Assembly: GCA_046482545.1 (NCBI GenBank)
Contig: JAWOEX010000032.1
Coordinates: forward strand, 160,001 to 224,000
Reading direction: 5' to 3'
DNA length: 64,000 nt
Source: Candidatus Thorarchaeota archaeon
GTDB lineage: Archaea; Asgardarchaeota; Thorarchaeia; Thorarchaeales; Thorarchaeaceae
Notes under the pieces: generated by a model
Database searches by the model: none
The model's input: the letters and a program-made list of their open reading frames with translations, nothing else
What the model was told of the DNA's origin: nothing
Part shown: piece after piece, positions 33,632 through 52,389 of the stretch
Layout: the number at the start of each line of letters is the position of its first letter
How positions within the stretch are numbered: the stretch's first letter is position 1
Position numbers and translations under genes: made by a program

Positions 33632-34513
33632 ATGATCAGAGAAATCCATGTGTTCAAGGACGGAGAGAGTCTGTTCGAGGACGTGATAGTTCCAAACAAA
33701 AACTTGGATACTTCAGCAGTTATGCAGCTAGTCAGTTCTTCAGCACAGAAACTTCAGGAATGGAACATCGACAATATGGAGATTGAGCGATACCGCTATG
33801 TCTACATGAACAGTCATGATACCCAGTTCATTCTTACTATGGACCGTCAGGCATCGATTCAGAAGGTTCACGAAGCCCTCATGAATATGGTTTCAAAGTT
33901 CATGACTGCGTTCGAGAGTGTGCTTGAAGGTGACGAGTGGAAATCCACGGATTTCTCCCCATTTCAAGCTGGTTTCAGGAATATCGTAGGTCGTATACCT
34001 GCCAAAGTGTGTTTGGCCGGCCATGGTGGTACTGGAAAAACAACTCTTCTTGAGCTTGCTACCCTCCCCTCACGCGGACCTCCACAGGACTACGTACCAA
34101 CATTTTTCGGCGATAAAGCCCTTCTAAAGGCCGATTTTGATCCTTATGTGTTCAGTGTGTTTGATCTTGGAGGACAGGACAGATTTGTCCAAGAATGGGG
34201 AAAAATAATCCGGGCTGGTAGCATGGTCGTATTGGTTACGGATTCAACTCCCGATAATATGAAATGGACAATGCGAGTAGCATTTCCCGTATTGAAGAAC
34301 GAGTTGCCTTATGCACGCATGATTGCAATAGCAAACAAGCAGGATTTGAAGGGAGCTCTCTCTCCCCAAGAAGTATCACGGAGACTAGGTGTTCCGGCTT
34401 ACGGAATGCAAGCAAATCAACGCGATTTCAGGCAAAGATGGCTTTCTCTTCTCAAGAGTCTTGCCTTTGAAGAGATTGACTTTGCAATAGTTTCGGATGT
34501 TATAACCGAGTAG
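33632..34513 (+). CDS. Longin domain fused to Arf-like small GTPase
   Basis: N-terminal adaptin-like longin pattern; G1 GHGGTGKT, G2 PT, G3 DLGGQ, G4 NKQD. Confidence 0.88.
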   Translation: MIREIHVFKDGESLFEDVIVPNKNLDTSAVMQLVSSSAQKLQEWNIDNMEIERYRYVYMNSHDTQFILTMDRQASIQKVHEALMNMVSKFMTAFESVLEGDEWKSTDFSPFQAGFRNIVGRIPAKVCLAGHGGTGKTTLLELATLPSRGPPQDYVPTFFGDKALLKADFDPYVFSVFDLGGQDRFVQEWGKIIRAGSMVVLVTDSTPDNMKWTMRVAFPVLKNELPYARMIAIANKQDLKGALSPQEVSRRLGVPAYGMQANQRDFRQRWLSLLKSLAFEEIDFAIVSDVITE

Positions 34514-34527
34514 GAGACTAGGAAAAC

Positions 34528-35085
34528 ATGAGCAAGAAAATGAAAAGTGTCATTGATGAAGAAGAGCGCAAGAGGCTAATTGAAGAGATTGGCCGAATGA
34601 AAGACACTCTTGATAGCTTCAAGTATGGATTGAACTTTGAAGATTTTGCTGATCAGATTTTCAAAACTGTAAATCGCCAGACAGCAGCCATCAATACACT
34701 GGACCGACGCATGAACGAGATTCTTACAAGGATGGAAAGACTGGAAGAGCGATTTGATGAAGGAATACGCGTTACTGTCTCAGGTGTGTCTGAGGACGAG
34801 ATTGGGGATACTGGGGGGAGACCAGAGGTGAAAGTCGAGAAGACTATGACAACAACCTCTCAGGAGGAACCAGAAATCGAGGGGTCTGATGCCGAGCTGA
34901 AACAGAAGGCAAAAAAGATTGAGACAAAAATTAATCGCCTTTTTGAAAGAGAAAATGCTCTCTCTGAGATGGCTATGAATGATCCAGCTGGTGCTGAGGA
35001 ATATGAAAAGAAAGCAAGAGTAGCTCGGCAGATGCGCCAAGATTTGGAAGAGAAACTTGATGTAATCAAACAGAAATTAGAATAG
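34528..35085 (+). CDS. Coiled-coil protein
   Basis: Heptad-rich charged helices; GGAG RBS. Confidence 0.7.
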   Translation: MSKKMKSVIDEEERKRLIEEIGRMKDTLDSFKYGLNFEDFADQIFKTVNRQTAAINTLDRRMNEILTRMERLEERFDEGIRVTVSGVSEDEIGDTGGRPEVKVEKTMTTTSQEEPEIEGSDAELKQKAKKIETKINRLFERENALSEMAMNDPAGAEEYEKKARVARQMRQDLEEKLDVIKQKLE

Positions 35086-35089
35086 TGTA

Positions 35090-35503
35090 ATGGCGGAGAT
35101 AAGAATGGGGATTCTTGATTGGTTGAAACGCAAACTCAAGAGAACGGAAAAGAAACCGGAGAAAGGAGAAATACGGAAGAAATCTAAAACAGCTAAGCCA
35201 GAGAAGGTTGAATCCAAAAAAACAGCTACGGATTTTCCCTCTTCGACAGAGGGTGTCTCTGTGGAAAGGCGGGAACAAGTGGGGTCATTAGTTGTTGAAT
35301 ATGAGCGCTTGGTTGAGCGACGTCAGCAACTGCAGGCTGAGCGCGGAGAACTAACAGAGAAGCTCGAGCGTGGTGAGCTTTCGTCTACCGAATTTAGGAA
35401 AGCATTGATGTCCAAGATTCAGGAGGCCTCGACCGTCTCAGACAAGATAAAGAAGACTTCATCAAAACTAACAGAACTCGGTTATCGTGGAGTGCTGCGC
35501 TGA
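35090..35503 (+). CDS. Small coiled-coil protein with SHOCT-like end
   Basis: MGILDWLKRK amphipathic start; LERGELSSTEF motif. Confidence 0.65.
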   Translation: MAEIRMGILDWLKRKLKRTEKKPEKGEIRKKSKTAKPEKVESKKTATDFPSSTEGVSVERREQVGSLVVEYERLVERRQQLQAERGELTEKLERGELSSTEFRKALMSKIQEASTVSDKIKKTSSKLTELGYRGVLR

Positions 35504-35516
35504 GGGGTGACAGGAA

Positions 35517-36971
35517 TTGGCTGATCGCGATGATGAATCCCCAGAAGACTCGGCAGAAGAAATCGAGAAGAAAACTACGGAACTATTGAAGGGAGCGACG
35601 GGAGAATCCACTTCTTCGAGTGATGAGCGAGATGCAAAACAAACCTTTTCTACTGAGGAAATCTCGCAGGCGACAGATGAATCAGCTGCAGGCCAAGTCG
35701 GAGAAACTTTCGCGCGTATCCAGATTCGTATGGAGGACATACTCGCCTCTGTTGAAGATGCTGCCCAGTCAGTTGAACCTAGTATTGATGAGAAAGTTAG
35801 CGAAGTCCTAGAGATACTTAGCAAGCGTCTAAGGGGCGCAGGATTGGGTGTTTTTGCTACGAGTGCTGTAAGCATAGTCCGCGAAGAAGTTGAGAAAGGA
35901 TTGTCGGGATCAGCCACTATGAATCCCATCTACCGTTCGGTTAGCGAAGGGAAGAGCGAGGTCAGGGATATTGTAACGAAAGCGAGCCGTGGAGCGACTC
36001 GTGCTATTGGTCGTTCTACAGGAGAGCTGCAGGGGAAGCTCTTCCAGATGTACACACGAGTTCAAGAGTTAGAAACGAATACTGAAGACTTGAGGGCCCA
36101 GATTAGGAGATGGAGATCTCGCGCCAATGAATTAGAAGATTTGGCCCAATCAAAAGACGAGTCTCTTAGCCGGTACGAATTGCGCGTTTCTCAGATGAAA
36201 GAGGATCAGGCTGAACTGAATACCAAGCTAGAAGAGAAGGACCAAGAGATTTCTACGTTACGCGGACAGCTCAGTGAGGCGAAATCTCAGATTGAACAGA
36301 AAGACGCCCTTATTGCATCCCTAGATTCCGCGGAAGAGATGGTTGAAGACTATGAAGAGAAAATGAACGAGTTATCAACGATTAAAGGTCAGCTAGCTGA
36401 ATACGAAGAGACACTTTCTCAGAAGGAAGAACGGATTGAGACTCTTGAGACAGAATTGACAGGTCTTAGAGAAGAAAACGCCAGACTCAATAATACAGTA
36501 GAGAATCTCAGTGAAGAAATCGCCTCTGTGCGTGGCAAGTCAAAAAGCCGGAAATCAGAAGTCGAATCTCTACAAGAACAACTTGAAGAACTCAGGGCTC
36601 GCTGGGAAATGCTCTATCAAGTAGCAGAAGAGGAACCTGACTTCAAAGCCTATTTCCTCATAGCTGACAAGGAGCACACCTGGTTACCCTTGACACATCT
36701 ATCGAAAGCCTTAGGTATTCCCACAGTCAAGCTTCGCCGTGATTTGCAGCGATTTGTCAATGTGGGCCTAATTGAACTGGAAGGGAATAAAGTCAGACCT
36801 CGCAAACTTTCAGAAGTCGCTGAGGAAATTGCTGGAACCAAGAAGAAGGTATTCGAAGACACACAGGAATCCATTATTGGAGATATTTCAGAAGCCAACG
36901 AAGACGAAAATAGCGACGAATCTGTATCATCTAGTAAAGAAGTCACAAGTGACCACACTGAATCATCTTAA
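35517..36971 (+). CDS. Long coiled-coil protein with C-terminal winged helix
   Basis: ~200-aa heptad stretch, then LTHLSKALGIPTVKLRRDLQRFVNVGLIE; no Walker motifs. Confidence 0.75.
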   Translation: MADRDDESPEDSAEEIEKKTTELLKGATGESTSSSDERDAKQTFSTEEISQATDESAAGQVGETFARIQIRMEDILASVEDAAQSVEPSIDEKVSEVLEILSKRLRGAGLGVFATSAVSIVREEVEKGLSGSATMNPIYRSVSEGKSEVRDIVTKASRGATRAIGRSTGELQGKLFQMYTRVQELETNTEDLRAQIRRWRSRANELEDLAQSKDESLSRYELRVSQMKEDQAELNTKLEEKDQEISTLRGQLSEAKSQIEQKDALIASLDSAEEMVEDYEEKMNELSTIKGQLAEYEETLSQKEERIETLETELTGLREENARLNNTVENLSEEIASVRGKSKSRKSEVESLQEQLEELRARWEMLYQVAEEEPDFKAYFLIADKEHTWLPLTHLSKALGIPTVKLRRDLQRFVNVGLIELEGNKVRPRKLSEVAEEIAGTKKKVFEDTQESIIGDISEANEDENSDESVSSSKEVTSDHTESS

Positions 36972-36973
36972 CA

Positions 36974-37333
36974 TTGGAGGTGACATCTGATTTGGCCCGA
37001 ACACTTGAAGAAGTAATGAGATTCCTACAGAATTATACGGTGGCATGGCACCACTGGCTGATACTGCTGTCCCTTCTGAAAACAGGGGGATCAGCTACAA
37101 AGAAACAGATCTTTCCCGTATTCAAGAAGGAGGGGTTTTCTACTCATGCAATCGAAGGCATATTCGAACGAGACTTGGAAGACCTTGGTGAGGCGGTCGA
37201 AGTTCAAGGCGGCATCGATGAGCTCTGCGATAGTAGTATGATTTACCTTACAAATGATAAGAAATTCAGGACTTTCCTCAAGAAGAATCTCAAAACAGTT
37301 GTAAGAATGCTTAAGCAAAGAAAAACGAAATAG
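36974..37333 (+). CDS. Hypothetical protein
   Basis: ORF packed at the end of the cluster. Confidence 0.65.
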   Translation: MEVTSDLARTLEEVMRFLQNYTVAWHHWLILLSLLKTGGSATKKQIFPVFKKEGFSTHAIEGIFERDLEDLGEAVEVQGGIDELCDSSMIYLTNDKKFRTFLKKNLKTVVRMLKQRKTK

Positions 37334-42805: not shown

Positions 42806-42878
42806 GAATTCAGCTGCAGTAGATGATGAACTACAGGGTGCCACTGCTCTCTACTCTCATTGTTTCGAGAATAGGCAA

Positions 42879-42933
42879 GTTTTACAAAAATCCTAAAAAG
42901 TCAGAGTGGAAAAGTGTAAAATATCTGCAAAAC
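42879..42933 (+). repeat. Solo left-end module of the non-coding element (copy 1)
   Basis: GTTTTACA-N39-TGCAAAAC containing AATCCTAAA and AAAGTGTAAAATAT, as at 43972 and 50922. Confidence 0.85.
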
Positions 42934-42951
42934 ACTACATTGACACGCCCA

Positions 42952-43004: not shown

Positions 43005-43467
43005 CTAATTCAGCCAGAACTTGAAATGAGTATGTATCTTGCAGGATTAGTTTTCCAAATCCTTATCACGTTTGTAACGCATATGATGAAGCATGGATAC
43101 TGCTGATCGAGACACAAGCTTCGACGATGTTCTAGCTGAGGCTGCGAAAACAGGAACGAGACTGCGGTTTTACAGTCACAGTATGGCCATACTTGCCAAA
43201 GGTCTTGTTGCATTCATTGGCAAGAATAGGAATAAAACATAAAGAAAAGGGACCCCCATTTGAGTTTCTGCGCAAGGATTGCATAGTCAAAATCCAAATG
43301 CTAGGTGAGCAAGAAGTCATTTGCTGAAAGCCGTACGGTTGAATCGACTAACGCGAAACAAGAAGATATTCCTGCGCTTCAACTCCTATCCATTGACGCT
43401 ATTCCTATTCCTACATTCTTATGTATTGCAAAAATACCAAATGCACTATCGCACCCTCGGTGACATT

Positions 43468-43896
43468 ATGGATATGACCATTCTCAGAGAACTGCTTGAT
43501 AAGCTGCATATTGGAATCGTGCTTGTGGGTAATGATGATAAGATTCTCGCTTTCAACAAGATGGCAGGAGAGATGCTACAGCAAGATCCTGAGGATAGAA
43601 TTGGAACCTCTATCTTCAGATGTCATGGTGAACCCTCAGAAGAACCAGTAAGAAAGATGCTAAATGATATGAGAAATGGGAGGATGGAAAGCTATGAGGG
43701 GTGGGTCAATTTCCAAGGAAGAATACTGTTTGAGTACATTTATCCACTACCGGGTCCGGATGGTGAATGTCATCTCGTTGTCGAAGAACTCCACGATGCT
43801 GCGGAAAAAGTGGAGTATCTCAAGAGCATAGGAGAATGGGAATTAATTCATGTATCAGGAGTAGGCGAAAAAGCCCCTAGGCCCCCAGAAAGATGA
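43468..43896 (+). CDS. Stand-alone PAS-domain protein
   Basis: LLDKLHIGIVLV...ILAFNKMA...IGTSIFRCH; start placed at ATG 43468 after GGTGA RBS. Confidence 0.8.
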   Translation: MDMTILRELLDKLHIGIVLVGNDDKILAFNKMAGEMLQQDPEDRIGTSIFRCHGEPSEEPVRKMLNDMRNGRMESYEGWVNFQGRILFEYIYPLPGPDGECHLVVEELHDAAEKVEYLKSIGEWELIHVSGVGEKAPRPPER

Positions 43897-43971
43897 ATTT
43901 TTTTCCAAGAATCATAAGAAAGGATGTTGAACTGTCATTGACAATTCTAGCAATCAATTCAAGAGCTTTGT

Positions 43972-44530
43972 AAATCTTACAAAATCCTAAATGAATCAGC
44001 ACAGTAAAGTGTAAAATATCTGCAAGATGTCCTGTATGCCTTCTTATGACCAAAGATGAGGGAAGTTAATTAGGCCGAGTACGGGAGTCCGGTCTAGTAG
44101 GACTAGGGCAGTGGGCCACTCCCCCTGGGGAGAAGCGCCCAGCCCCGAAGGCTGTGAGGAAGACCCCGTCTTCTAAGCAGAAGTCCTTACTCTCCGAACG
44201 AGGGGCCCCATCAGGCCCTGGAGAGTCCGCGGCTGTTCACCTCGTCTGTAATGGACCTCCTCAGCGGTGGTGACAATGTTGAGGTCGGTGATCATGACCA
44301 CGCCGTGGCAAAAACTGTGGAAGGACTCGCTGTCGCCGGAGTGATGACCCGGGATGACGACAGGAGACGGAAGCCAGGATCGCGGGAGGAATCCTATTCC
44401 GGTGAACGCGGACAAAGCCCCTGCTGACTCAAGGGCCCATTGGGTAGCCTTGGGGGTGGTGACGCTGGCAGGGGAAGGGTGGAACACAGAAGTTTCACGC
44501 AGTTGCTACAACTGTAAGAAACAGGTTATC
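43972..44530 (+). ncRNA. Longest copy (copy 2) of a GC-rich structured non-coding element; ncRNA and/or non-autonomous mobile element
   Basis: Homologous to 50922-51203 and 49540-49774; many nested stems, GNRA loops; no conserved ORF. Confidence 0.65.
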
Positions 44531-46824
44531 GAGAATAATACCTTGACCCTATCATCCTTCTCGAAGCGTTTCCGTATGCTACCGACATTCGGCGAGTGTT
44601 GGTTATGGGTATAGATTTCGCCGTTAACGGAGGTCTCTTGAATACTCCACTCCTCGCTGAAGTAGAAGTAGATCCCCTCTGCATGATTCGTGGCTTTAGA
44701 AACCACTAAAGTCAGCTCATTTGAGTCAGCGTCCCACTTCTCGCTTTGAATATCACAGGCTCCTTGAGTGAAGTGCATGCTAGTCGCCAATAGAGACGGT
44801 CTATCTTGTGCTGGCTTTATGCTGTATAGTCTACAGGTATGCGGCTTGAGACTGGACACGCTGATTTTGTCTTCGACTTCTTCGACGTATTTCTCGTCCC
44901 AGAAACCGAATACATGGTGGGAGACTCCTTCTTCAAGGCCAAGATCTGTAAGATACACCTCAAGGTCAATAGGCTCCTCGCCAAGATTGAACAGCCCTAC
45001 AACAACCCACTCGCTGGTTTTGTTTTTAACAGGAAGAAAGAAAATATTGGGTTCTGGTTTAATCAGAGTATCCGGGGATAGGGCTCCCTCTGGATACACT
45101 GGAAGCAGCTTGTCTACAAGTCGAAGCCTCTCTTCGGAGACTTCCATCATCCGGTCGCTTAGAAGGAATGCCCCTCCACTAAGGGCAACAATTGATGCCC
45201 AGAGTCGTACCTCTTCAAGAGAGAGTTCGTTGTCTTCTTGCCGAACTAGCAAGCAGTCAGGATCGTTTATCCACCACCTATTGTGCAAAGGCGCCCTCGT
45301 TATGGTATTCACAGCGCATTCGTACACCCCGCCACCCCAATCAAGTCTCCAAGATGTGGCAATGTCTGTTCCAATTCGCATCGCATTTGTGATTCCAATG
45401 CACGGTCCCAGAGGGGCACCGCATCCGAGGATTAGAGAGTCTCCAACACTTTCGCGCACAGCTTCAATTCCGTTTCGGAAAGCTTGAGCACGTGTAACTG
45501 TTTCATCAAATCTTTTTGCTTCTTCTGTGGCATGATAGAGGAAATCAATCTTGAAGTACTCAAATCCTAAGGATTTCAGATGTTTGAACAATGATTTGAT
45601 ATGCTTGATTACGGCTGGATTTGAAAGGTCCAGCGCGTAATAGCTCCCAAGCCATAGCGGATTGTCATCGATTACTTTTGGCTCACCTTTCTTGGACGCA
45701 AGAAACCAGTCTGGATGCTGTTTGAAAAGGTCAGAATGCTCTGTAGCAATGAATGGTGCTGTCCAAATGCCTGCTTTGAAGCCTTTCTTCTCAATTTCTT
45801 CCTTCAGATAGTCCAAGCCATTTGGAAACCTATCGTTTGGTTGCCAATCTCCCACTGTTTTCTGGTACCCGTCATCAATTTGAATCCACTTTACGTAATC
45901 CGGGAATCTTTCTTTCAGGAATTGTGTGTTTTCCAGAATCTCCCCCTCTTCTGGCATGGTGTAATAGAAATACCATGAACACCATCCTACGGGTATTTCA
46001 TCGCACAAGACGGCATTCATCCGTCTAGCTGCAAGATCAGCATATTCCTGAAGGGATGCCAAGCCATCGGCTTTGATGATGACGACCAGTTCCTCTGAGA
46101 CAACCGCCTCGTCTGGAATCAATAGTGTACTATCGAGCTCACATGTTGCTGCCAGTCTCTCCAGCTGCTGTCTTCCGGCGTCAAATGAGATATTTGTCAG
46201 TTGTCTATCCATTGTACAGAATCCGATAAGGATGTTCGATTTATCGCTCCGATTTGTGAGAACGGAGTAGAAGTGACTGATATTCGACCCTTCTTGTAGT
46301 GGCTGAGCTCGGCTGAGCTCCCAAGAATGAAAACCATTTTGGAAGTATCTTAAATCTAACAAATCCACCCCTGTCAGGATTGTAGAAGATGTCCATAAGG
46401 GTGAAATCGAATCGAGTTCTAAATGCTTGCCAGATTTGTTGATTAGCTGCACCGTGAATGTAAATCCGCTTAGGCCATTAGATGCAATTACTTTGAAGCG
46501 CACCTCGTGTGACTGGACTGGATCCTGAAGAGAAAGAATGAGTACCCTATCTGCTTGACTCTGATTCTTTATGGTAAGTGTATCCATAGAGACGTATTTG
46601 AGTTGAGAGGAATTGATTATTCTCCCTTTCGTTGATATTTGAAATTGACCTTCTCGTAGATATTCTTCTCCCATGGGATTAAGAAGACTGAATGAACCGT
46701 TCTCTATATCCCATTCGAAAGCCATGTGTTGAGTACTTAGAGAAACCTTATGCTCAGATAAATCGACGCTGCTCCACTTCTCAGGGTCCAAGTGCTCTAC
46801 TCCTTCAAACTGTGTTGAATACAC
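44506..46824 (-). CDS. Alpha-galactosidase (GH36-like)
   Basis: GWCSWY, QIDDGYQ, RFPNGL, FKIDF, MRIGTD, NDPDC. Confidence 0.9.
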   Translation of the reverse strand: MYSTQFEGVEHLDPEKWSSVDLSEHKVSLSTQHMAFEWDIENGSFSLLNPMGEEYLREGQFQISTKGRIINSSQLKYVSMDTLTIKNQSQADRVLILSLQDPVQSHEVRFKVIASNGLSGFTFTVQLINKSGKHLELDSISPLWTSSTILTGVDLLDLRYFQNGFHSWELSRAQPLQEGSNISHFYSVLTNRSDKSNILIGFCTMDRQLTNISFDAGRQQLERLAATCELDSTLLIPDEAVVSEELVVIIKADGLASLQEYADLAARRMNAVLCDEIPVGWCSWYFYYTMPEEGEILENTQFLKERFPDYVKWIQIDDGYQKTVGDWQPNDRFPNGLDYLKEEIEKKGFKAGIWTAPFIATEHSDLFKQHPDWFLASKKGEPKVIDDNPLWLGSYYALDLSNPAVIKHIKSLFKHLKSLGFEYFKIDFLYHATEEAKRFDETVTRAQAFRNGIEAVRESVGDSLILGCGAPLGPCIGITNAMRIGTDIATSWRLDWGGGVYECAVNTITRAPLHNRWWINDPDCLLVRQEDNELSLEEVRLWASIVALSGGAFLLSDRMMEVSEERLRLVDKLLPVYPEGALSPDTLIKPEPNIFFLPVKNKTSEWVVVGLFNLGEEPIDLEVYLTDLGLEEGVSHHVFGFWDEKYVEEVEDKISVSSLKPHTCRLYSIKPAQDRPSLLATSMHFTQGACDIQSEKWDADSNELTLVVSKATNHAEGIYFYFSEEWSIQETSVNGEIYTHNQHSPNVGSIRKRFEKDDRVKVLFSITCFLQL

Positions 46825-49537: not shown

Positions 49538-49539
49538 AT

Positions 49540-49774
49540 ATAACCTGTTTCTCGCTGTTGAGTGAACCTAGCTGAATAAAACTTCTGTGTTCCACCCTTC
49601 CTCAGCCAGTGTCGCCGCCCCCAAGGTACCCGTACCCCTTCGAGCTAGCACTGGCTTTGCCCATATTTACTGGAATTGGATTCCTCCTGCGGTCCTGGCT
49701 TCTGTTTCCTGTCGTTATCCTGCGTCATCACTCCCGGCGACAGTGAGTTCTTCCACGGAGGGAGCATGATTACC
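49540..49774 (-). repeat. Inverted, 5'-truncated, more diverged copy (copy 3) of the non-coding element
   Basis: Reverse complement aligns to ~44287-44529 including GGAAGGGTGGAACACAGAAGT and AGAAACAGGTTAT. Confidence 0.9.
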
Positions 49775-49787
49775 CATTTCAGCCCTG

Positions 49788-50729
49788 CTACCGTTGCAAT
49801 CGCTTGAATACTTCATTGGCTATGAATACCTCTGTTCCAGCCAATCCTACCGAACAGAAGAGTGTAATATCTTGGTCGGATTCACGTCCCGGTATTTTGC
49901 CTGTTACAATGTTGCAAAGTTTCAGGATTCTTTTTCGGTGTTCAGTATTAGATAGGAAGTACGGCCTTGTATAGTTACCATAGCTATCCATTTGGGCTAT
50001 CGAATCAGTAACAATGACTTGGCTCTTATTGGCGACTCCAACCTCTATCTCATTCGTGCCAGCCAAGTTCGGACCGAGTGTTGTCACGTGCATTCCTGGT
50101 TCTAGTAACTCAGAATCGTATACTGGCGTCTTGCTGCGGGTAGCTGAAATTACTATATCTGCACCAGTAATTGCGTCATCAGGAGATTCTACCGGTTTTA
50201 CTGTTAGATTCAATTTCTGACTCATCTCCTCAGCGAAAGCTTCTCTGTGAGCCTCGGTTGGGCTGTAAACACGAACTTCCTTGAGATTTCGAACGATGTT
50301 GGTAGCTTCGAGTTGCGATCTTGCCTGGGTCCCTGAACCAATCATGGCGAGAGTATCTGAGTCTGGTCTGGATAGATACTTAATCGCAACGCCACCAATC
50401 CCTCCAGTGCGAATCACTCCCACTCTAGTACCACAAATAACTCCTTTTAGTACTCCACTGTCCCCATCATAACAAACTACCAGCTGAGTATGCCCGGGTT
50501 CATCTTTGGGAAAGGTTTCGTATATCCGAAACCCGGCTGCCTTTTCTCTCCCTGTTGAGGCTCCTACAGTAAATACAAGGGAACCTTTACCCGCTTCAAC
50601 CGTGAAACGTGGTGGTGCATTGAGAGTTCCCTTGCCATGTTCGGTCATTGCGTCTTCCATCTTGGTGACTGCATCTTGCATATCGAGAACTTTGTCAACC
50701 TGTTCGTCGTCAATAACTGGGAATTTCAT
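49788..50729 (-). CDS. Ornithine cyclodeaminase/mu-crystallin family protein
   Basis: RTGGIGG, GSGTQA, GRESDQDITLFCSVGLAG. Confidence 0.9.
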   Translation of the reverse strand: MKFPVIDDEQVDKVLDMQDAVTKMEDAMTEHGKGTLNAPPRFTVEAGKGSLVFTVGASTGREKAAGFRIYETFPKDEPGHTQLVVCYDGDSGVLKGVICGTRVGVIRTGGIGGVAIKYLSRPDSDTLAMIGSGTQARSQLEATNIVRNLKEVRVYSPTEAHREAFAEEMSQKLNLTVKPVESPDDAITGADIVISATRSKTPVYDSELLEPGMHVTTLGPNLAGTNEIEVGVANKSQVIVTDSIAQMDSYGNYTRPYFLSNTEHRKRILKLCNIVTGKIPGRESDQDITLFCSVGLAGTEVFIANEVFKRLQR

Positions 50730-50921
50730 AGAAATAAATTGGAGTTTTATATGTTATAATTATAGTGGGTAAAAATATTCTATATAGCTCCCAAAAATCA
50801 AAATCATCTCTCCTTTATAATGGCAACTTTCATTGTGAACTGCTCGCCAAAGTTAATTATCTACAATGCATCTTAATATGAGATTACTCAGAGTGGTTCT
50901 AGGTCAATTCAGGAGTAATCA

Positions 50922-51203
50922 AAATCTTACAGAATCCTAAAAAAATCAGAGTAGAAAAGTGTAAAATATTTGTAAGATTTCCCGTAAGGTTTCTTATCAC
51001 CCACACGGGGGAGTTTATGAGGCCCAGTACAGGACCACGGTTCAGTAGGACTAGGCAAGTGGGCTAGTATTATACACGACGGGCGCGGCCGAAGCCCCTG
51101 CTGACTCAAGGGCCTACGGGTACCTTGGGAGGCGACGCTGGCAGAGGAAGGGTGGAACACAGAAGTTTCACGCAGTTGCTACAACTGTAAGAAACGGGTT
51201 ATC
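50922..51203 (+). mobile_element. Internally deleted copy (copy 4) of the non-coding element, both ends retained
   Basis: Left part aligns to 43972-44117, right part to ~44406-44530; last 58 nt differ from copy 2 at one position. Confidence 0.7.
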
Positions 51204-52389
51204 TGGAATCAGTGAGAAGGAATGCTACAAGCGAAGCAAGAGATATTGTTATCGTGAGGAACCAAATAGCCATTGAGAGTCCCCATATATCTCCTATGAA
51301 TCCGAAAATCGTGGGTGAAATCGCACCAGGAATAGATCCAACAGAAAACAGGAGTCCAAACGCAATACCCGATTGCTCTTTTGGGCTCATTTCGGTAAGA
51401 TATGCTGTTGCTGTTGGCTCTCCTAAGAAGAAGAAAAAGCCTAACACTATCAGAATAATAATCAACGATAACCGGCCGACTGTAAAGCTGAGCAGAGCAA
51501 TCGCAAACGCTGAAACGACTGTAGAAATCACCATGAAATCTGTACGGCGACCTGTTCTATCCGAGAGTGGTCCCGCAACAAGTTCTCCAGCGACACCTGA
51601 GATGAGCATTAGGCTTGTTAATGCGCCGGCTAGTACGGGTTCATATGCATGGCTATCCACCAGATACAGTGGCATCATCAGAGTTATGGATCTGAATGAC
51701 ATCCCCTTGAGACCCATATACACAATACCCAAGACGAAGTTTCTTTTCCATTGTGTAGATTCAGTCCTTTCACGACTTGTTTTCTCTGTTGCAACAGGAC
51801 ATCTAGTAGAGTATCTTATCAGCATCGCTACTGGAAAAAATGAAACTATTCCTATTAGACCAAGTAAAACAAGGGATTGGCGCCACCCGCCAAAAACTAG
51901 AAGCAATATGACACCAAGCATCGGCACCAATGCCATTCCTAATAATCCACCAACTGCCTGGATGCTAGTAGACTTAGCCCTGCTGCTTAGAGGGAATCTC
52001 TCAGCTAGTGTGGGAAACGCACTAGGGTGGTACCCCGATGCTGCAACACCAAGCAAAGCTTGCGAAATAATCAGAAGCCAGAAACCCTCAGAGCAGCTGA
52101 CCAGCAAGATACCAAAGGCCATAGAAATAACAGTTGTAGGTATGAATATCTCCCGCCATCCTTTGTCTCCAAGATATCCTACTCCCATATGAGACAGGTT
52201 CATCGTCAAAATCAAAGCTGATGTTACCATTCCCGTCTGAGTAAGAGTTAGAGATAGTTCTTGCCTTATCAGGGGAAGAAATGGTGAAAGCACGCCTGTA
52301 TAAACATGGTTAAAAAAATGGGCTATTATACAGGCAATTAGGACAGCATACGACGCTTTGGTGGCCTTATCTAATTTCACCACTTCCAC
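51199..52389 (-). CDS. MFS transporter
   Basis: 12-TM pattern, GYLGDK and GPLSDRTGRR motifs. Confidence 0.92.
   Translation of the reverse strand: MEVVKLDKATKASYAVLIACIIAHFFNHVYTGVLSPFLPLIRQELSLTLTQTGMVTSALILTMNLSHMGVGYLGDKGWREIFIPTTVISMAFGILLVSCSEGFWLLIISQALLGVAASGYHPSAFPTLAERFPLSSRAKSTSIQAVGGLLGMALVPMLGVILLLVFGGWRQSLVLLGLIGIVSFFPVAMLIRYSTRCPVATEKTSRERTESTQWKRNFVLGIVYMGLKGMSFRSITLMMPLYLVDSHAYEPVLAGALTSLMLISGVAGELVAGPLSDRTGRRTDFMVISTVVSAFAIALLSFTVGRLSLIIILIVLGFFFFLGEPTATAYLTEMSPKEQSGIAFGLLFSVGSIPGAISPTIFGFIGDIWGLSMAIWFLTITISLASLVAFLLTDSR

Follow-up and report, generated by a model that had tools for sequence, protein, structure and literature searches.

A stand-alone copy of the probable TnpB guide-RNA scaffold of a Thorarchaeota aCas1-TnpB transposon

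Introduction

The closest described relatives of the element analyzed here are Cas1H-Asgard-1 and Cas1H-Asgard-2 (Altae-Tran et al. 2023, PMC10691335), in which a TnpB of Asgard archaea is encoded beside a Cas1 variant in a repeat-flanked locus. That paper already describes the aCas1-TnpB system itself, on computational grounds. It also reports the motif GTTCACTCA after a variable stretch downstream of tnpB, a motif that we find in the parent elements of our locus, and suggests that the variable stretch is the guide. The main text, in the sections available, does not describe a full fold, gene-less copies, 6-bp repeats or an upstream small RNA, and the literature had left the anatomy of the TnpB-Cas1 transposon open.

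Our locus lies in a window of 64,000 nucleotides (contig C22 of a 3.05-Mb genome, G000), in which the initial annotation had proposed an RNA fold under selection and guessed at a ribozyme, a guide-RNA scaffold or an intron-like RNA. The second guess is the one borne out, as the body of the RNA consists of the 3′ end of tnpB and its downstream RNA. We show here that it is homologous to the 3′ end of tnpB, that its fold covaries and includes a pseudoknot close to the predicted guide, that the copy shares its ends and repeats with larger elements, and that a TATA-like box precedes the RNA at a constant distance. The copy in the window is a gene-less member, and the parent elements account for most of what is new.

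Gene-less mobile copies with a scaffold are also known as stand-alone omega RNAs and PATE-like IS200/IS605 elements (PMC10691335; Meers et al., 10.1101/2023.03.14.532601), where TnpB and transposase are supplied in trans, as we infer here. Our copies differ in having a presumed Cas1-fold mobilizer, 6-bp end repeats and empty sites with no conserved TAM; membership among the PATEs, with their Y1-type ends and no flanking duplication, was rejected upon finding 6-bp repeats and the ends of an aCas1 element instead. The scaffold is also long, at about 435 nt, IS605 scaffolds having roughly half that length. CreR RNAs (10.1101/2023.03.10.532045; 10.1101/2023.03.03.530964) are small guides partly complementary to the promoter of their own effector, and the parent loci, though not the window copy, likewise combine a partial match to their own promoter with an adjacent TAM-like motif. 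In contrast to CreR, the effector here is a transposon TnpB, there is no CRISPR array, and the small RNA is predicted to dock on a scaffold that has a cis guide of its own. TranC intermediates (Jin et al. 2025, as summarized in PMC13639567) resemble our system in the functional split of a TnpB scaffold into tracr-like and cr-like RNAs, and differ from it in that ours has no CRISPR array, a single regulatory guide, and aCas1 as partner rather than IS605/IS607 transposases. Casposons share a Cas1-family integrase acting as transposase and frequent tRNA-gene neighbors, whereas the elements described below have 6-bp repeats and TnpB, and their Cas1 domain is joined to a PD-(D/E)xK-like region within one protein of 1400-1960 aa; membership was rejected because a family B DNA polymerase gene is absent from the ORF lists of both 8.3-kb elements. 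An IS110 bridge-RNA element was rejected as well, PF02371 being absent from the 98.9% complete genome.

Results

Identity and insertion of the window copy

Sequence comparison shows that 44096-44529 (+) is homologous to the 3′ end of tnpB together with the DNA downstream of it. Copies that begin at the RNA sit 3′ of a tnpB gene, and the RNA runs from the last tnpB codons, which it overlaps, to the right end of the element. The homology and the covariation described below make it very probable that this region is the omega/reRNA scaffold of a Thorarchaeota aCas1-TnpB transposon, a multi-junction RNA that here stands alone in a gene-less copy. The ends and 6-bp repeats of the window copy are those of 8.3-kb parent elements that encode tnpB and a giant protein with a Cas1 fold.

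An outer left end belonging to a first copy (42865-42935, +) carries a TCGAGA repeat identical to the right repeat, the host target, at 44529-44534 (+), and the two delimit a composite insertion of about 1.66 kb. When this segment is taken out, the alpha-galactosidase again ends in KVLFSKQ-stop, like the uninterrupted orthologue in the sister genome G002, and the insert is absent from the orthologous sites of both sister genomes (G001 and G002). The matching ends, the restored gene end and the insert-free sisters thus identify the window copy as the right part of a composite insertion. The host gene (44506-46824, -; Melibiase, E 4e-16) has had its last codons overwritten by the element, and a PAS-domain gene within the insertion (43441-43896, +; Pfam PAS_10, E 6e-10) is missing at this place in both sisters. 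Elsewhere in the window (33632-37333), coiled-coil genes follow a small GTPase gene in an Asgard-type cluster.

Gene-less copies and parent elements

A profile search of the genome gave 105 matches, about 35 of them full length, and similar matches occur in 24 of 36 genomes of the same family and in 0 of 24 outside it, the named relatives being Thorarchaeota. Full gene-less copies are about 570 bp long and are laid out as TCNNGA, a spacer of 9-10 nt, TYTTACA motifs, a TATA-like box, the RNA, TGTAAGAAAYRGGTTA and TCNNGA. In 17 of 37 copies the two end hexamers agree exactly (2.5 after shuffling), and in a filtered set they do so in 26 of 37. In the window copy, the inner left end has the core TCAAGA (43959-43964, +), followed by the left end proper (43965-44035, +), whose TYTTACA/TGTAAGA motifs are common to the 8.3-kb parents, and by the TATA-like box (44066-44072, +), which reads TTAATTA and so deviates from the consensus TTTATTA. 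This box lies exactly 30 nt upstream of the scaffold in 21 of the 21 full copies scored. The window also holds a 5′-truncated copy that retains the GTTCACTCA loop (49538-49797, -) and a copy with an internal deletion and both ends present (50909-51208, +). Overall, the gene-less copies are mosaics of parent haplotypes. Back-to-back copies, each inserted at the end hexamer of the other, are seen at C20:181315-182445 and C41:25041-25601.

The two 8.3-kb parents (C28:133384-141693 and C20:228517-236744) have both ends with matching hexamers, tnpB and a divergent ORF of 1400-1590 aa. Of about 110 tnpB loci, nearly all in Thorarchaeota or archaeal bins, most have the scaffold RNA downstream, and the pair of tnpB and giant ORF is found again in the majority of related loci whose flanks are long enough. 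The cognate TnpB matches PF07282 (E 4e-11), it has PDB matches to TnpB and Cas12f, and RuvC and zinc-finger motifs are present. The aspartates of RuvC-I and RuvC-III are kept; the usual RuvC-II glutamate is replaced by G, with a later E conserved, a rearrangement of a sort judged active in PMC10691335. Pfam and PDB sequence searches with the giant protein gave no significant match. A model of its first 400 residues (pLDDT 86) has only Cas1-family proteins among its top 12 structural matches (Z 8.7-12.9, VIA-align), with an rmsd of 3.4 over 177 residues to the Cas1 fold, and Foldseek alone leads to Cas1 at E 0.006; the VIA-align result is clear. At one locus (L030; G000 C34, ~113000-114300), a putative AbiEi/AbiEii-type toxin-antitoxin pair lies upstream of tnpB in the place of aCas1, and at C28:236398-237303 a 3′ half of tnpB is fused in frame to the apparent start of an Lrp/AsnC-type HTH gene.

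Fold and covariation

The proposal that selection acts on an RNA fold of the + strand is supported. The motifs quoted in the initial annotation are all present where it placed them, and GC content is indeed raised, at 53-60% over 44000-44599 versus 37-47% in the flanks. Folding energy, for which an advantage over shuffled controls had been expected, is mildly better for the single sequence (z -1.97 on the + strand, -1.05 on the -), which is weak evidence. Homologues covary as predicted: in an alignment of 125 (mean identity 61%), with double changes counted on the tree, four or more compensatory double changes occur in 43 column pairs, where the null has a mean of 1 and a maximum of 3, and five or more in 25, where the null gives 0. 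RNAalifold on 35 rows, that of L149 contributing gaps only, found changes on both sides in 56 of 94 pairs and recovered most of the nested helices. A stricter APC G-test, run against a tree null, retained no more than 3 pairs at E 0.05, so the argument for the fold rests on the count of compensatory events and on RNAalifold.

ACTCTCC/GGAGAGT (44189-95/44220-26) is paired in 92-100% of homologues, with two pairs of its inner GGGCC/GGCCC stem (44202-03/44216-17) supported, and covariation also upholds CTGTC/GACAG within CTGTCG 44330-35/CGACAG 44358-63 (helix 44326-34/44359-66), the GNRA loop at 44459-62 (helix 44457-58/44463-64) and the CTCCC/GGGAG hairpin (44119-33), which varies in length. The hairpin at 44254-44286 retains its upper part (44259-44284; helix 44259-66/44277-84) and GTGA loop, and loses its GAC/GTC base, as GAC pairs instead with 44244-46, where two pairs have 11-12 changes (helix 44244-47/44253-56). 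CAGCC/GGCTG, paired in 19-59% of homologues, and TTCCG/TGGAA, down to 41% at position 2, both fail, and TTCCG pairs locally with GGAAT at 44388-92 (helix 44388-92/44396-400). The long-range architecture was largely wrong, both of its stems being replaced by other helices and a pseudoknot. Some positions of CCGTCTTC/GGAGACGG (44166-73/44363-70) are paired in only 10-29%, and 44158-74 forms a local hairpin in its stead (helix 44158-63/44169-74); pairing of AGTCCTT with AAGGACT at 44321 drops to 12%, and AGTCCT pairs with AGGACT at 44099-104 (helix 44099-104/44182-87). The best-supported helices had been missed, namely 44418-25/44467-74, 44315-19/44485-89, 44227-33/44302-08 and the pseudoknot 44295-99/44524-28. 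Covariation further supports 44237-41/44287-91, 44373-75/44478-80 and 44428-34/44448-54, all on the + strand like the others.

The 5′ strand of the pseudoknot, TGACC (44295-44299, +), has its partner GGTTA just before the guide, with 86-95% pairing and 3 and 4 compensatory changes; the variants CCGAYC/GGTCGG and AAGACC/GGTTYT covary. It closes the scaffold immediately 5′ of the predicted 3′ guide. The scaffold ends in GGTTAT (44524-44529, +), which is the right end of the element and a motif that also ends the upstream small RNA, directly ahead of its promoter-matching guide. In the terminal hairpin (44492-44522, +), the parent loop GTTCACTCAC, a putative docking site for the small RNA, has become a 3-nt loop; the parent-type GTTCACTCA loop, kept in 22 of the genome's 70 right ends, is lost here.

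Among the gene-less copies, variants present in at least 3 keep pairing in 74% of cases and private variants in 26%, with about 37% under neutrality. Private changes break pairs as expected from decay, and the pair-keeping of shared variants may reflect inheritance from the parents instead of selection among the gene-less copies.

Transcription

In four salt-lake metatranscriptomes from two studies, summed contig depth reaches 33-82 over 44069-44435, compared with 0.1-7 at the left end and 0-15 in other parts. Depth pools many copies in these contigs, which have neither strand nor defined ends, and those identical to the window copy reach a depth of 2-4, similar to the flanking genes, so that transcription is hinted at for the scaffold family only.

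An upstream small RNA in the parent loci

Upstream of tnpB, the parent loci have a conserved 70-nt unit behind a TATA box, made up of a hairpin, GAGTGAACTCAAC, RGGTYAG and a copy of the locus's own promoter; it is present in 4 of the 5 parent loci of this genome. In 75% of 61 loci, the copy and the promoter of the same locus agree over at least 11 nt, compared with 1.3% across loci. A TAM-like CTTMAT precedes the promoter target and not the promoter copy, with T at -4 in 52/52 targets, A at -2 in 49/52 and T at -1 in 51/52. GAGTGAACTC shows covariation with the 3′-terminal GTTCACTC loop and arm of the long RNA, and RGGTYAG tracks the pseudoknot-strand changes in the CCGA clade. Pairing of the small RNA with the 3′ arm gives -17.3 kcal/mol for the own locus and -14.7 across loci, and 0 of 20000 permutations were as low. 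We found no report of this RNA in the literature searched, in which coverage of subscription journals is thin.

Several loci depart from this arrangement. L123, L124 and L134 have, instead of the small RNA, a second long scaffold upstream of tnpB that ends in a promoter-like guide. In a clade adjoining tRNA-Gly(TCC) (L031, L032, L033, L105 and G000 C23:123784-124302), the cis end motif is missing after the loop and the upstream small RNA is kept; judging by this layout, the clade may be immobilized and use trans guides only. At L065:9788-9870 and L098:8023-8070, a further scaffold-end motif lies downstream, accompanied by another guide-like stretch, much as in a mini-array of two units.

Guide boundary and target choice

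The upstream guide/target pairs fix the end of the scaffold after RGGTYAK, and thus the predicted guide of the window copy, drawn from flanking host DNA, starts at 44530 (44530-44549, +). With the guide starting there, the stretch before GTTCACTCA, which PMC10691335 proposes as guide, would here act as a pairing arm. The empty sites of gene-less copies have no CTTMAT, only T at -1 and a preference for A or T at -2, so classical homing stays a proposal. No TAM-flanked second targets stood out for the cis guides of the genome's copies.

The left hexamer core is common to nearest relatives in 21 of 37 cases, against a null of 8.0, and for the right core the figure is 13 of 37, against 3.9 (p 0.00015); beyond the hexamer (flank +7 to +16), their similarity is at chance level, and no RNA-guided seed was seen to extend past it. 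TCAAGA is used 12 times and TCTTGA 3 times, both being equally frequent in the genome. The middle of the hexamer is inherited along lineages, for which a DNA overhang carried with the left end would be a slightly better explanation than a guide seed. Of 50 distinct cis guides from other genomes, 12 have a match in a tRNA gene (control 10/150). At L036:10813, L044:10783, L120:10233 and L125:2045, the cis guides correspond to an arm or the 5′ end of a tRNA gene at or near the element boundary, and as these matches are on the opposite strand, they are not direct repeats and resemble homing spacers. Two other cis guides (L089:6846, L100:5623) are identical over 16-18 nt to G000 C2 near 1302, presumably 16S rRNA, and diverge thereafter. 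Among the tRNA genes of G000, several are interrupted by introns in non-canonical places or are missing their 5′ portion, for example tRNA-Arg(CCG) on C26, with two partial copies 470 bp apart.

Discussion

In the scheme that we favor, the gene-less copy would be moved in trans by aCas1, and its scaffold RNA would be transcribed from the captured promoter and then bind TnpB supplied by the parents. The flank-derived guide from 44530 would help the copy to persist or spread, most simply, by analogy with other stand-alone omega RNAs, through cutting of the vacated site. In the parents, GAGTGAAC of the 70-nt RNA is the predicted pairing partner of the scaffold's 3′ loop; this crRNA-like RNA would displace the cis 3′ segment by pairing with both the loop and the pseudoknot strand, and its match of 9-16 nt would point TnpB at its own TATA box. 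By analogy with CreR in CRISPR loci, we consider it likely that TnpB is directed in this way to repress its own promoter. As the loop is lost in the window copy, this copy should use its cis guide only.

A ribozyme or self-splicing intron-like RNA could explain a large, GC-rich, GNRA-capped, multi-helix fold, and an additional catalytic function like that of IStrons is formally conceivable; the ribozyme or intron reading is nevertheless highly improbable, as an Rfam search of the stretch at gathering and E-value thresholds, catalytic-core models included, gave no real match, which led us to reject group I and II introns and known ribozymes, and the RNA is homologous to the coding tail of tnpB. 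Its insertions moreover occur in either orientation, between and into genes, with repeats at the DNA level and with the same ends as the aCas1-TnpB transposon. It is also conceivable, if quite unlikely, that the fold is inherited baggage beside the right end, with no RNA function selected in gene-less copies. The neutral decay of private mutations, the deleted copy that keeps both ends (50909-51208), the mosaic of parent haplotypes and the background depth of the window copy in the RNA runs all fit such a view, but about 35 copies retain the scaffold from the first helix on, a TATA box at fixed spacing is found in copies and not at that place in parents, and it is the body rather than the left end that dominates the RNA contigs in four runs.

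Conversely, the RNA could do more than our preferred scaffold reading requires and be needed for movement, with TnpB and the donor guide, whose first letters are CNNGA, selecting the next site of aCas1. The inherited hexamer middle at both ends, the excess of TCAAGA over TCTTGA and the tRNA-matching cis guides of other genomes would agree with this, and it would account for the many copies that retain the whole scaffold. We regard it as doubtful, given that likeness ends at the hexamer, that the tRNA-matching guides have no common TAM, and that TnpB retains its full catalytic set; where left and right cores mismatch, the left is often typical of the lineage, which fits a DNA overhang of the left end. 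For the parents, an alternative account would take the upstream repeat for a promoter duplicated in tandem, and the small RNA for a 5′ leader pairing with the 3′ end of its own tnpB transcript in cis regulation. There is a TATA box in both copies, the second about 25 nt before the start codon. However, the match starts exactly after the scaffold-end motif and extends past the TATA box into variable bases, CTTMAT precedes the first copy only, and the end motif covaries with the pseudoknot strand, so we hold this account to be unlikely. A bolder version of the guide-RNA reading, to which we give a rather low probability, would see the scaffold as a proto-tracrRNA of an RNA-guided TnpB/Cas1 transposon, in which cis and trans guides are swapped by a toehold in the loop, the trans guide repressing the promoter and the cis guide helping to choose sites, for which the inherited TCNNGA cores and the tRNA-directed guides of relatives would speak.

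The fold, guide boundary, TAM-like motif, ends and target hexamer now make the anatomy of the TnpB-Cas1 transposon testable. Two parts of it are surprising: the inheritance of the target core and the probable self-repression of the parents through two RNAs. Should the small RNA act as proposed, guidance by two RNAs would already exist in a transposon that has both a Cas12-like and a Cas1-like protein; this would amount to CRISPR-style self-repression without an array and would bear on the origin of type V CRISPR.
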